Below, piece after piece: positions 31,198 through 61,121 of a DNA stretch of 64,000 bases. Under the pieces are notes generated by a model, which did not search any database, had not been told where the DNA came from, and worked only from the letters and a program-made list of their open reading frames with translations. The stretch lies in the NCBI GenBank assembly GCA_022763485.1, contig JALEGX010000016.1:2820-66819 (forward strand), read 5' to 3'. Positions within the stretch are counted from its first letter, which is position 1; each line of letters begins with the position of its first letter. The stretch comes from Paracoccaceae bacterium. Lineage in GTDB: Bacteria > Pseudomonadota > Alphaproteobacteria > Rhodobacterales > Rhodobacteraceae. The position numbers and the translations under genes were made by a program.

Positions 31198-32271
31198 TCA
31201 GGCGACGCCTCCGGCAATCAGCCCCTCTGCGATGCGGGCATAGGCCTGGGCCATCGGCCCCTCACCCAGCGCAACCGGCGTACCCGCGTCCCCGCCCAGA
31301 CGGGTGTCCAGATCAATCGGCAGGCTGCCGATCAGCGGCACCCCAAGCTCCTGCGCCTCTTTGGCGACGCCGCCGTGACCAAAGATATGGTGTTCGGAAC
31401 CACAGTCGGGACAGGCAAAGAATGACATGTTTTCGATCAACCCCAGCACCGGCGTCTTGAGCGTGCCGAACATGTCCAGCGCCTTGCGCGCGTCCAGCAG
31501 CGCCACATCCTGTGGTGTGGACACGACGATGGCGCCGCTCAGTTCGGATTTGGTACACAAGGTCAGCTGCACATCGCCGGTCCCCGGTGGCAGGTCCACG
31601 ATCAGCACATCCAGCTCGCCCCAGTTGACCTGGGTCAGCATCTGCTGAAGTGCCCCCATCAGCATGGGGCCGCGCCAGACCACGGCCTTGCGCTCCTCCA
31701 ACATCAGGCCGATGGACATGATCGTGACCCCATGCGCATGAAGCGGTTCGATGGTTTTTCCGTCCGGGCTGGCGGGGCGCCCGCTGACCCCCATCATCCG
31801 CGGCACACTTGGTCCATATATATCTGCATCCAGCAAGCCGACGCGACGCCCCTGCCGTGCCAGCGCCACGGCAAGGTTTGAGGACACCGTCGATTTGCCA
31901 ACGCCGCCCTTGCCGGATCCCACAGCCAGGATGCGCTTGACGCCCGCCGGTTTCATCGGTCCGGCCTGCGGTTTGGCATGGCCACCGATCTTGAGGCTGG
32001 GCGCGGGCTGCGCCGGGGCCGCCGCGGCATGGGCCGTCAAGGCCACGGATACGGTATCCACGCCCGGCAAGGCCTGAACCGAGGCTTCGGCCGCGCGGCG
32101 CAGTGGCTCCATCAGCTTTGCGATCTCAGGGCTTGGGGCCTCAATGACGAATCGGACCGCCGCGCCGTCGATCGAGACCGCACGCACCATATCGCGACTC
32201 ACCAAAGTGCCCCCGTCAGGCAATGACAGACGCTCCAACGCGTCGAATACGTCCTTGCGATCCACAGTCAT
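31198..32271 (-). CDS. apbC: Mrp/NBP35-family iron-sulfur cluster carrier ATPase (ApbC)
   Basis: The ATG at 32271 (MTVDRKDVFDALERL) begins an N-terminal MIP18-like domain. This is followed by the deviant Walker A GSGKGGVGKST and the CPDCG motif. Confidence 0.92.
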   Translation of the reverse strand: MTVDRKDVFDALERLSLPDGGTLVSRDMVRAVSIDGAAVRFVIEAPSPEIAKLMEPLRRAAEASVQALPGVDTVSVALTAHAAAAPAQPAPSLKIGGHAKPQAGPMKPAGVKRILAVGSGKGGVGKSTVSSNLAVALARQGRRVGLLDADIYGPSVPRMMGVSGRPASPDGKTIEPLHAHGVTIMSIGLMLEERKAVVWRGPMLMGALQQMLTQVNWGELDVLIVDLPPGTGDVQLTLCTKSELSGAIVVSTPQDVALLDARKALDMFGTLKTPVLGLIENMSFFACPDCGSEHHIFGHGGVAKEAQELGVPLIGSLPIDLDTRLGGDAGTPVALGEGPMAQAYARIAEGLIAGGVA

Positions 32272-32545
32272 TTCCGCCTCCAGATTGATTAACCCGGTCA
32301 AACCGGGGGAATGGCCAACAAAACTGCATATCACTTGCACATTTCAGCGCCAAGCGAAACAGAAACAGGCCCTAAGTGCCGGAAAAGTAATCATTCCACC
32401 CATGCACTTTCTGCATAGCAGCATTGACTCTGGAAGGTATTGTGCAGCCGCAGCATTTCCCTAAATATGGTTCACAACAGCGCTGCACCGCAGCACACAG
32501 CCCACCACTCGGGCAACACGAAACACAGATTCAGAGGATCGACAC

Positions 32546-32758
32546 ATGGCCGCAACAACCCACATCAGCACCCGCAAAGGCGTTGGCTTTGGTGGTGTCT
32601 CGGCGATGATCGAAACCCTGATCGAACGCTATTCCCGCTACCGGATCTACCGCCAGACCGTCAATGAACTGGCGTCGCTGAGCAACCGGGAGCTGGCGGA
32701 TCTTGGGCTGAGCCGCTCCGAACTTCGGCGCGTCGCCCTGCAGGCCGCCTACGACTGA
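32546..32758 (+). CDS. DUF1127 domain-containing small protein (CcaF1-like)
   Basis: 70 aa. C-terminal YRQTVNELASLSNRELADLGLSRSEL is the DUF1127 signature. The CCUCCUCCC hairpin array follows immediately. Confidence 0.85.
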   Translation: MAATTHISTRKGVGFGGVSAMIETLIERYSRYRIYRQTVNELASLSNRELADLGLSRSELRRVALQAAYD

Positions 32759-32768
32759 AACACCGAGA

Positions 32769-32842
32769 TCAGGTCTTCTTCTCCTCCTCCCTTGAAGGCC
32801 TGAGATACGCGGCGGCAGCTCCCTCCTCCCTGCTGTCGCCGC
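32769..32842 (+). ncRNA. CcsR-like unit A (hairpins 1+2)
   Basis: Two adjacent hairpins with loops TTCTCCTCCTCCCTT and TCCCTCCTCCCT. Unit boundaries are inferred, not mapped. Confidence 0.55.
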
Positions 32843-32875
32843 ACCCAATACCGGCCCAACACGCCGGACAGAGTT

Positions 32876-32951
32876 CACCGGGGCCTTCCTCCTCCCTTGT
32901 CTCGGTGAAGCCTACGCACCAGGGTCTTCTCCTCCTCCCTTGGCCTTGGTG
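32876..32951 (+). ncRNA. CcsR-like unit B (hairpins 3+4)
   Basis: Two hairpins with loops CTTCCTCCTCCCTT and TTCTCCTCCTCCCTT. The second loop is identical to loop 1. Confidence 0.55.
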
Positions 32952-32961
32952 TTAAATGAAG

Positions 32962-33007
32962 ACGGCGGCGCCCTCCTCCTCCCTGGCGTCGCCGTTTTTC
33001 TTTTTTC
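32962..33007 (+). ncRNA. CcsR-like hairpin 5 doubling as intrinsic terminator
   Basis: GC-rich stem ACGGCGGCG / CGTCGCCGT with a CCCTCCTCCTCCC loop, followed by a U-tract. Confidence 0.7.
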
Positions 33008-33184
33008 GGCCCAGCGCTCCCCTCATCACCCGATCCCAGCCCCCGGCCCACCCCACGGCACCGTCTTGCGTGACCTGCCCCTTGATCCCGTCAGCGGCAG
33101 ACAGACCAGACGCCCAAAACAAAACCAGCGCCCGGATGGGACGCTGGTTGTCAGGTTACACTTGCCGGCCGGCTGAACGGCAGC

Positions 33185-35593
<2,409 letters not shown>

Positions 35594-49162: not shown

Positions 49163-49204
49163 AATTTCCAGGTTGACGCCTGCCCTCTCCTCCCCCTACC
49201 AATT

Positions 49205-49320
49205 GCCTCACGCAGGGGGGTCCCGCCAAGGGGACTGAGAGGCGGACGAGGGCATATGCCCGGTGATGCGACCCTTTGAACCTGACCCAGTTGATACTGG
49301 CGGAGGAAGCTAGGTTTGCA
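49205..49320 (+). promoter_or_regulatory. TPP (THI-box) riboswitch aptamer upstream of thiC
   Basis: Conserved cores GGGG...CTGAGA (49236-49241) and ACCCTTTGAACCTGA..CAGTTGATACTGGCGGAGGAAG (49271-49309). Aptamer ends are approximate. Confidence 0.85.
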
Positions 49321-49440
49321 TCGCCCGGGGACCCGTACGCCCCCAGCCATGCAGGTGCCGAACAAGGGGGCCGTACACCCCCTGTTTCCAGCGCGAAATC
49401 ACCTGGTGTCTTTTTGAGTGAATGCTTGAGGAGCACCTGA

Positions 49441-61035: not shown

Positions 61036-61121
61036 TGGTACGGGCGGTGGGACTCGAACCCACACGGGCATACGCCCTTCGGATTTTAAGTCCGATATGT
61101 CTACCATTCCATCACGCCCGC
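61036..61121 (-). tRNA. tRNA-Leu (anticodon UAA)
   Basis: Minus strand reads GCGGGCG..AUCGGACUUAAAAUCCGA..long variable arm..GUGGGUUCGAGUCCCAC CGCCCGU A CCA. The cloverleaf was folded by hand. It has a 7-bp acceptor stem (one G-U), the anticodon loop CUUAAAA, and an encoded CCA. Confidence 0.92.

Follow-up and report, generated by a model that had tools for sequence, protein, structure and literature searches.

The locus examined here raises the question of what is encoded in the 250 nucleotides (nt) that follow a small DUF1127 gene in an alphaproteobacterial contig, a stretch that gene-centred annotation leaves blank and that Rfam names only in part (as ar14, a rhizobial name). The gene lies within 64,000 nt of contig JALEGX010000016.1 (Paracoccaceae bacterium, assembly GCA_022763485.1), and this whole stretch of DNA is referred to as the window. 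We consider the locus to be, with high probability, a ccaF1-ccsR-type operon, i.e. a 'cuckoo' small RNA (sRNA) cluster of the CIN1 neighbourhood in a Roseobacter-group alphaproteobacterium. The assignment follows from a match to the Rfam family ar14, the literature definition of cuckoo RNAs, the presence of such arrays beside the orthologous gene in relatives, and covariation in the stems. Identity and architecture of the locus emerge from tool results on sequence, fold, conservation, covariation, gene linkage and conservation of the promoter motif.

The product of the open reading frame (ORF), 70 amino acids (aa) long and arginine-rich (nine arginines), carries a DUF1127 domain (Pfam PF06568; E=1.3e-15, 57.2 bits vs a gathering cutoff of 23.3), which occupies residues 25-61 and matches the full profile (1-37). 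A Shine-Dalgarno sequence, GAGGA (32534-32538), is located 7 nt 5' of the ATG. Only 10 nt lie between the stop codon and the first of five stable hairpins, which follow on the same strand, with no terminator in between, within ∼240 nt 3' of the ORF. An original prediction, made by a model from the sequence alone, had described exactly this ORF and five hairpins within about 240 nt, and the Pfam match and RNAfold confirmed both; its hand-paired stem coordinates were reproduced by local folds or extended by 1–4 pairs. The pure C/U loops, the identical 15-mer in loops 1 and 4 and the terminal U-tract that it reported can be read directly from the sequence. For the comparisons below, we assembled 87 related loci, consisting of metagenomic loci and 80 loci from species-representative genomes. 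Arrays in these relatives are built of a-b pairs (a variable a stem, a linker of 5-9 nt and a b stem based on GCGGCG...CGCCGC), and the stems in the window are designated likewise:

32546-32758, + strand: ccaF1-like gene for a 70-aa DUF1127 protein (ATG at 32546, 70 codons)
32769-32803, + strand: hairpin 1 (hp1), a-type stem, arms 32769-78 / 32794-803, loop UUCUCCUCCUCCCUU (15-mer)
32809-32842, + strand: hairpin 2 (hp2), b-type stem GCGGCGGCAGC, arms 32809-19 / 32832-42, loop UCCCUCCUCCCU
32874-32909, + strand: hairpin 3 (hp3), a-type stem, arms 32874-84 / 32899-909, loop CUUCCUCCUCCCUU
32916-32952, + strand: hairpin 4 (hp4), a-type stem, arms 32916-26 / 32942-52, loop UUCUCCUCCUCCCUU, the same as in hp1
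32958-33006, + strand: hairpin 5 (hp5) with terminator tail, b-type stem ACGGCGGCGCC, arms 32958-72 / 32985-99, loop CUCCUCCUCCCU

All five loops are composed purely of C and U, and each contains an exact CCUCCUCCC. The 9-mer CCTCCTCCC occurs in five exact copies in the window, all of them on the + strand between 32783 and 32983, compared with 0.77 copies expected from shuffles, and five copies were reached in 0 of 100 shuffles. When 32759-33010 was folded with RNAfold, the energy amounted to -114.8 kcal/mol (shuffles: -77.2 ± 4.6; z=-8.1), with all five motifs unpaired and each placed in the loop of a strong hairpin. The last hairpin, hp5, combines a G+C-rich stem with the tail UUUUUCUUUUUU directly 3' of it and hence closes the cluster as a Rho-independent terminator; it is the only hairpin with a U-tract. 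A consensus terminator scan did not pick up hp5 because its loop is longer than 8 nt.

In the relatives, the stems vary in sequence while their pairing is conserved. Over the window and the 87 loci, 479 of 491 motifs (97.6%) lie entirely within the loop of a hairpin with 6 or more closing base pairs (bp), as opposed to merely 145 of 491 after shuffling of the 3' flanks, and the mean energy is -19.6 kcal/mol for the real sequences vs -8.4 kcal/mol for the shuffled ones; among the 479 hairpins, there are 326 distinct 18-nt 5' stem flanks. In an alignment of the positionally orthologous first unit, hp1+hp2 (alignment A4; 61 distinct sequences), RNAalifold recovered both helices, with compensatory double changes at 15 of 18 pairs (hp1: 6/7; hp2: 9/11, with 99.4% of the hp2 cells paired) and with invariant motif columns. 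Altogether, 98.0% of the cells in this alignment were paired vs 85.3% in shuffles, and both sides had changed in 145 cells vs 32; 0 of 500 shuffles reached any of five covariation measures, and sliding the 3' partners lowered pairing to 31–53%. Compensatory stem changes around invariant loops are what the original prediction had expected from an alignment of orthologous loci. As for the remaining hairpins, the close relatives L001 and L004 maintain pairing in hp3 through G-C to G-U and G-U to A-U changes, and one-sided changes in hp4 of L001 and L086 likewise leave pairing intact.

The arrangement of gene and array is equally well conserved. Homologues of the DUF1127 protein with 89–99% identity came from metagenomes only (JGI samples 3300044604, 3300045052, 3300044605 and others), followed by one metagenomic sequence at 64% and by proteins of at most 63% identity in named Ruegeria and allied Roseobacter-group genera. 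In the collections searched, no genome thus exceeds 64% protein identity, and the source lineage seems to lack a closely related sequenced genome there. On the contigs of the 89–90% homologues, the gene order (Fe-S ATPase, DUF1127, UvrD) is the same as far as the contigs reach, and the five metagenomic loci with complete arrays (L001-L004, L086) possess five motifs with the identical spacing 39/66/43/44. Almost all of the 80 genome loci have 2–16 motifs beside the DUF1127 gene, usually just downstream and on the same strand, and the genera with this arrangement include Ruegeria, Pseudophaeobacter, Tritonibacter, Pelagimonas and others.

Two genera deserve separate mention. In Sulfitobacter (L072, L075, L078, L079), cuckoo hairpins precede the DUF1127 gene or flank it on both sides, a deviating placement that has been remarked on before (PMC8034643). 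Mesobaculum littorinae (L073:2686-3530) has 16 cuckoo hairpins (8 units), including five near-identical tandem copies of a 113-nt unit plus spacer; this array is the result of a recent tandem amplification of the unit.

How does the array relate to described RNA families? The 'cuckoo' family merges RSs0680/CcsR (two hairpins), ar14/SmelA075 (three) and SmelA099 (four) (Reinkensmeier & Giegerich 2015, PMC4615179) and is defined by 2–4 adjacent hairpins with CCUCCUCCC in each loop and highly variable stems (PMC4615179). The present locus has 2 + 3 adjacent hairpins, the motif in 5/5 loops, and stems that vary while their structure is kept. CIN1 denotes the cuckoo neighbourhood at the DUF1127 gene of orthologous group OG1, which corresponds to CcaF1 (PMC4615179, PMC8034643). 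Within Rfam, ar14 (RF02344) matched 32868-33000, i.e. hp3-5, over its full length (1-123) with 62.1 bits vs a gathering score of 58.8 (E=7.9e-9), and its helices 1, 2 and 3 correspond to hp3, hp4 and hp5, the last with the U-tail. On 32720-32847, ar14 remained below threshold (46.7 bits in a permissive scan of 32300-33200). When 20 related loci were searched, ar14 passed only in those with at least three hairpins in close succession (L001, L086, L077). The proposal of a DUF1127 gene followed by a cuckoo/CcsR-type array in its 3' untranslated region (UTR) is therefore borne out by the ar14 match, the literature definition, the linkage in nearly all of the 87 loci and the covariation; the covariance-model search that had been suggested to check it succeeded with ar14 on hp3-5 and failed with the CcsR1 model, to which we return below.

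The best-characterised counterpart is ccaF1-ccsR1-4 of R. (Cereibacter) sphaeroides (RSP_6037 + RSs0680a-d), where the DUF1127 gene was named ccaF1 and is co-transcribed with CcsR1-4 from an RpoHI/RpoHII promoter (Grutzner et al., PMC8034643). In that organism, the 5' ends of the sRNAs are generated by RNase E cleavage beside U residues, CcaF1 binds CcsR1 and its precursor and alters maturation, and the CcsR sRNAs act on flhR messenger RNA (mRNA) and oxidative-stress resistance (PMC8034643). Both loci encode a DUF1127 protein of ∼70 aa with an N-terminal extension (24 aa + domain + 9 aa here vs 27 + domain + 11 in the 71-aa CcaF1, compared by layout), and they have in common same-strand hairpins in the 3' UTR, CCUCCUCCC loops, an intrinsic terminator at the end and an RpoH-type promoter motif. 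The best 120 proteins returned by a profile search for R. sphaeroides CcaF1 were from the Roseobacter group only. The loci differ in that there are two units here (2+3 hairpins) vs four two-hairpin sRNAs in R. sphaeroides. Besides, the flanks here are an Fe-S cluster ATPase and UvrD, whereas no benzoate transporter gene, recorded as a neighbour of many Rhodobacteraceae clusters, was seen next to this one. Only for R. sphaeroides have induction by stress, processing by RNase E, binding by CcaF1 and flhR as a target been demonstrated. The roles in oxidative stress and C1 metabolism that the original prediction named likewise come from R. sphaeroides and would apply here by analogy.

The three-hairpin part of the array resembles Alpha-r14, or NfeR1 (SmrC14), of Sinorhizobium and other Rhizobiales (RF02344), which likewise consists of three adjacent CCUCCUCCC-loop hairpins, the last being the terminator, and whose three anti-Shine-Dalgarno loops act as redundant seeds occluding ribosome-binding sites (PMC10746234). 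However, NfeR1 has a promoter of its own (LsrB- and NtrC-controlled) and lies 5' of a DUF1127 gene, while the three-hairpin unit here forms the tail of a 3'-UTR array. Since this position is combined with a-a-b stems that resemble the two-hairpin units of neighbouring Roseobacter relatives, the unit is probably a local variant (gain of a hairpin, or loss of a b hairpin plus spacer) and not an NfeR1 orthologue. Such variants have precedents: the CIN1 loci of Rhodobacteraceae are clusters of two-hairpin RNAs, some of which end in structural variants (223, 2223, 24) (PMC4615179). With the clusters listed for Ruegeria pomeroyi ('222'), Loktanella vestfoldensis ('223') and Sagittula stellata ('2223') (Reinkensmeier & Giegerich 2015), the window shares the neighbourhood and the rule that two-hairpin units come first and that a three- or four-hairpin unit may end the cluster, yet its own pattern, '23', is absent from the table in that study.

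The array is organised as 2+3, with a two-hairpin unit at 32769-32842 and a three-hairpin unit at 32874-32999, and not as 2+2+1, as had originally been supposed. This follows from the short linkers joining hp3, hp4 and hp5, from the gap between hp2 and hp3 being the only long one, and from the extent of the ar14 match over hp3-5. Linkers measure 5 nt between hp1 and hp2 and ∼5-6 nt between hp3 and hp4 and between hp4 and hp5, leaving the gap after hp2 as the sole long one, and the order in the window reads a b | spacer | a a b (hp1, hp3 and hp4 being a-type; hp2 and hp5 b-type). In relatives, the a-b pairs are set apart by spacers of ∼20–45 nt (mostly 25–35), and the last b hairpin bears the U-tract. 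Close runs of three or four hairpins are a minority among them (L058, L061, L072, L077 and the clade of the window), in agreement with PMC4615179. The a-a-b unit could have arisen by duplication of an a hairpin or from a 2-2-2 array that lost 'b + spacer'; hp3 closely resembles hp4. The long gap itself contains a further element:

32843-32869, + strand: inter-unit spacer of 27 nt, with an A/U-rich single-stranded leader (CCAAUA, to 32850) and a small hairpin

This sixth, motif-free hairpin of 5 bp (CCGGC-CCAACAC-GCCGG, 32851-32867, by RNAfold), situated between hp2 and hp3, had been overlooked in the original prediction. The spacer of the window (ACCCAAUA-CCGGC-CCAACAC-GCCGG-AC) is a standard example of those seen in relatives (L006-L085; e.g. 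L016:2799-2830 and L061:2795-2823). Spacer hairpins were defined by RNAfold, and their conservation was judged by shuffle statistics and stem diversity. A small hairpin, usually of 5 bp with a loop of 4–7 nt, folds in 131 of the 133 distinct spacers that separate units in related loci, with a mean energy of -9.6 kcal/mol vs -4.3 in shuffles (mean z -2.6; z < -1.5 in 86%). As there are 42 different 5' stem arms (CCGGC, CCGGG, GGACC, GGGCC, GGGTC, GAGCC and others), it is the structure and not the sequence that is kept. When 121 trimmed spacer hairpins were aligned with MAFFT and passed to RNAalifold, 0 pairs were predicted, the 3' arms having been misaligned through varying loop lengths. The 5-nt leader before the spacer stem is 76% A/U, compared with 44% for spacers overall, and typically reads UAUA, AAUA or AAUU. 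Given the preference of RNase E for single strands rich in A/U and, in R. sphaeroides, its cleavage beside U, we infer by analogy that the leader may be the RNase E dicing site, with the small hairpin helping to define the new end or to shield it. The CcaF1 paper mentions only two motif hairpins per sRNA and does not use the word 'spacer' (PMC8034643).

Upstream of the gene, conservation reaches well beyond the ORF, and the following features can be placed there:

32398-32424, + strand: conserved upstream block ATGCAcTTtCTGCATAGCAGCATTGAC, nearly invariant in a 19-locus alignment, candidate regulator site
32409-32423, + strand: near-palindrome TtCTGC-ATA-GCAGCA, with one mismatch in the window, centred ∼60 nt upstream of the predicted start
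32440-32466, + strand: RpoH-type (sigma-32-like) promoter candidate TTGTGCAGCCGCAGCATTTCCCTAAAT, composed of TTG (32440-32442), an 18-nt spacer and CTAAAT (32461-32466)
32475-32545, + strand: predicted 5' UTR of ∼71 nt, read from the sequence

A sequence of this kind suggests that an RpoH-type promoter is likely to precede the DUF1127 gene, with a predicted transcription start near 32475. For R. sphaeroides, RpoHI/RpoHII promoters have been described to contain a TTG spanning -36 to -34, an A of high information content at -12 and a T at -9 (Dufour et al., PMC3441632); if the A at -12 is set to 32463, then T at -9 falls on 32466, and TTG is one base nearer than in the logo of PMC3441632. A crude scan found TTG-N17-19-[CT]TAnnT upstream of the ATG, and comparably far from it, in roughly half the loci, and the RpoH-like motif is present in most of the 19 Roseobacter-group genera aligned (alignment A3, one locus from each of 19 different genera). 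A sigma-70-type promoter scan of 32250-33250 gave no match. The length of the predicted 5' UTR is close to the ∼64 nt that can be derived by arithmetic for R. sphaeroides from the published sizes (a precursor of 680 nt as a whole, ∼400 nt for CcsR1-4 and a 216-nt gene; PMC8034643), and its structure was not significant (z=-1.5 vs shuffles).

The 19-locus alignment further revealed a ∼70-nt block (32398-32470) that is almost invariant across genera, with the invariant columns ATGC..T.C.GCAT.GC.G..TG (upstream block) and TTGTGC....GCAGCA (promoter); the GCAGCA core of the promoter spacer is thus invariant as well. Within the block lies a 6-3-6 palindrome, TGCTGC-ATA-GCAGCA, which occurs in its exact form (TGCTGCATAGCAGCA) in 35 of the 87 loci, always upstream of the module. 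In Sulfitobacter L075, where the hairpins precede the gene, the palindrome is upstream of the hairpins and therefore belongs to the module as a whole. The sequence [C/G]TGCA-N2-3-GCAGCATT is present twice, 30 nt apart, and a weaker third copy, CTGCAccGCAGCA, was seen in the 5' UTR (32483-32495) in the clade of the window only. Scanning the window for the palindrome with up to three mismatches yielded 7 matches vs 2.2 expected, the sole copy with one mismatch being the one at 32409 and the rest weak and scattered, while the promoter-core motif (up to three mismatches) had 8 matches vs 7.9 expected and no other close copy. From the sequence, an additional regulator acting at the palindrome block is possible.

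Other readings of the upstream block were considered and rejected. By eye, the GG/GC spacing does not fit a sigma-54 promoter, and the candidate -35 element of an EcfG promoter, GGAAG, falls in a non-conserved gap. Nor does the block appear to be coding: an ATG is in frame in just a part of the genomes but out of frame in the window (where it is 148 nt upstream), and the conservation has no codon pattern. A related observation is that many Ruegeria annotations give the DUF1127 protein 102–118 aa, not 74 aa (L012, L018, L035, L040; P0012, P0018, P0035, P0040, P0107). These long forms, which use an open in-frame start upstream that falls within the conserved promoter block (ATGCAnTTGCTGCAT...), can be argued to be mis-annotations, since the block is invariant at the nucleotide level and the frame is shifted in other genomes.

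Taken together with what is known from characterised relatives, the locus would work as follows, whereby transcription, sigma factor, processing, protein-RNA binding, targets and physiology are all assigned by analogy. A stress-sigma (RpoH-type) promoter near 32440-32466 would drive a transcript of ∼530 nt that comprises a 5' UTR of ∼70 nt, the gene for the 70-aa arginine-rich, presumably RNA-binding DUF1127 protein, and the five-hairpin 3' UTR. Each loop of the array would display the anti-Shine-Dalgarno sequence CCUCCUCCC, and hp5 would also terminate transcription. As in R. sphaeroides, RNase E, modulated by the precursor-bound DUF1127 protein, may cut at two places, close to the stop codon and within the A/U-rich linker, and so release two stable sRNAs, one of ∼80-90 nt and one of ∼130–160 nt. 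That no terminator precedes hp5 and that the linker is A/U-rich gives indirect support to co-transcription and processing. Their redundant C/U loops could then pair with purine-rich ribosome-binding regions of target mRNAs, such that translation would be blocked or decay accelerated under stress.

Several observations weigh against this interpretation. The ar14 score is marginal, given that in the permissive scan of 32300-33200 it was 58.7 bits vs the gathering score of 58.8. The CcsR1 model (RF02791), which was built on Rhodobacter sequences, stayed far under its gathering score of 65.3 bits, with 32.0 bits on hp1-2 (32765-32847) and 29.4 bits on hp4-5 (32911-33000). This model, however, passed in 0 of the 20 related Roseobacter-group loci and is hence too narrow for the clade, so that its failure does not speak against homology. 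An AlphaFold2 model of the 70-aa protein (26 sequences) consists of three helices at low confidence (predicted local distance difference test, pLDDT, 63; predicted template modelling score, pTM, 0.39). A Foldseek comparison of this model with PDB gave no match with an E-value <3, and sequence searches of PDB and NCBIfam with the protein gave no match either. A Smaug/SAM-like helical RNA-binding fold was reported for CcaF1 as a PHYRE2 prediction (PMC8034643); the poor model, lacking a significant fold match, leaves that fold unconfirmed here, and for the 70-aa protein it is neither confirmed nor contradicted by the modelling. As regards regulation, the RpoH-like motif on its own has low information content, and the palindrome upstream, together with the invariance of the promoter spacer, suggests that control extends beyond RpoH or is exerted by a factor other than it. 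Finally, NfeR1 is Hfq-independent and induced by other signals, and physiology therefore does not transfer simply within the family.

Might the hairpins instead serve a different purpose, or be divided differently? One view would have them act solely in cis, as 3'-UTR stabilisers or terminators or as a platform for DUF1127 autoregulation, with no trans-acting sRNAs being freed. The start of hp1 10 nt past the stop codon, with no promoter between, would accord with this, as would the binding of the precursor by R. sphaeroides CcaF1 and the enrichment of the ccaF1 coding region in the CcaF1 pull-down (PMC8034643), and the Shine-Dalgarno sequence of the DUF1127 gene itself, GAGGA, could pair with the loops. 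A stabiliser or terminator, however, needs no invariant 9-nt loop over 491 hairpins with freely varying stems, the U-tract is confined to the last hairpin, and the upstream hairpins of Sulfitobacter indicate that a 3' position is not required. As, moreover, units accumulate as separate sRNAs in characterised relatives and repress mRNAs in trans (PMC8034643, PMC10746234), we regard a purely cis-acting array as very unlikely. A function-free origin, be it a chance run of C/U-rich palindromes or a generic repeat of the repetitive extragenic palindromic (REP) type, has as its sole argument that G+C-rich genomes hold many hairpins. It has already been refuted and its probability is negligible: five motifs were found in 0/100 shuffles, the fold has a z of -8.1, the 64 kb harbour no further copies, and the position beside one gene is kept across many genera together with compensatory stem changes.

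Of the alternatives, a different division of the array has the most in its favour, though it too appears unlikely. It could be that the organisation is 2+2+1, with the last hairpin a mere terminator, or that there is one five-hairpin RNA of ∼250 nt. RNase E could cut within the A/U-rich sequence that joins hp4 to hp5 (UAAAUGA), and the two-hairpin CcsR1 model aligns weakly to hp4+hp5 (29.4 bits). Yet among the gaps in the window, only that between hp2 and hp3 has the inter-unit form of relatives, i.e. an A/U leader and a small hairpin. In addition, the loop of hp5 contains the complete motif and its stem is of the b type, as in the second hairpin of each unit, the terminal b hairpin of relatives always doubles as the terminator, and ar14 spans hp3-5 end to end above its gathering score. 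The operon of ccaF1-ccsR type, with one two-hairpin and one three-hairpin unit, hence remains the preferred reading.

Biologically, nothing in this operon is unexpected. It is a typical copy of a described, widespread, stress-linked riboregulatory module of alphaproteobacteria, which would not surprise a specialist, and it extends the known module to one more marine Roseobacter-group lineage that has been seen so far only in metagenomes. Its practical bearing is on annotation: the CcsR1 model misses the whole Roseobacter group, and it would be useful to annotate the locus as a ccaF1-like gene followed by two sRNAs, with two and three hairpins, respectively. Novelty, if there is any, is confined to two features, namely the A/U-led spacer hairpin and the promoter block with its palindrome, which could guide experiments on transcription and cutting. 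We tentatively propose, well aware that the odds are rather against it, that these possibly undescribed parts are a covarying 'punctuation' in the spacers that steers dicing by RNase E/CcaF1, and a dedicated transcription factor acting at the palindrome block with or instead of RpoH. If this were true, three- and four-hairpin sRNAs (e.g. hp3-5) would arise where a punctuation element and a neighbouring hairpin have been lost.

The module is flanked in the window by two genes, both on the strand opposite to the DUF1127 gene:

31198-32340, - strand: Mrp/NUBPL-type Fe-S cluster ATPase gene
33185-35593, - strand: UvrD/PcrA helicase gene

Just after the uvrD/pcrA-like gene, a minus-strand hairpin with a U-tract (33123-33149) resembles an intrinsic terminator; it converges on the cuckoo terminator, from which it is separated by a gap of ∼115 nt. 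No second DUF1127 gene and no further cuckoo motif array were found elsewhere in the 64-kb window. Two other structured RNAs were noted in it: a transfer RNA (tRNA) gene (61039-61121, - strand; 61.6 bits in Rfam) with a long variable arm and the anticodon loop CUUAAAA, probably tRNA-Leu(UAA), and a thiamine pyrophosphate (TPP) riboswitch (49204-49325, + strand), which scored barely above the threshold of its Rfam model (RF00059; 55.2 bits vs 54.3).

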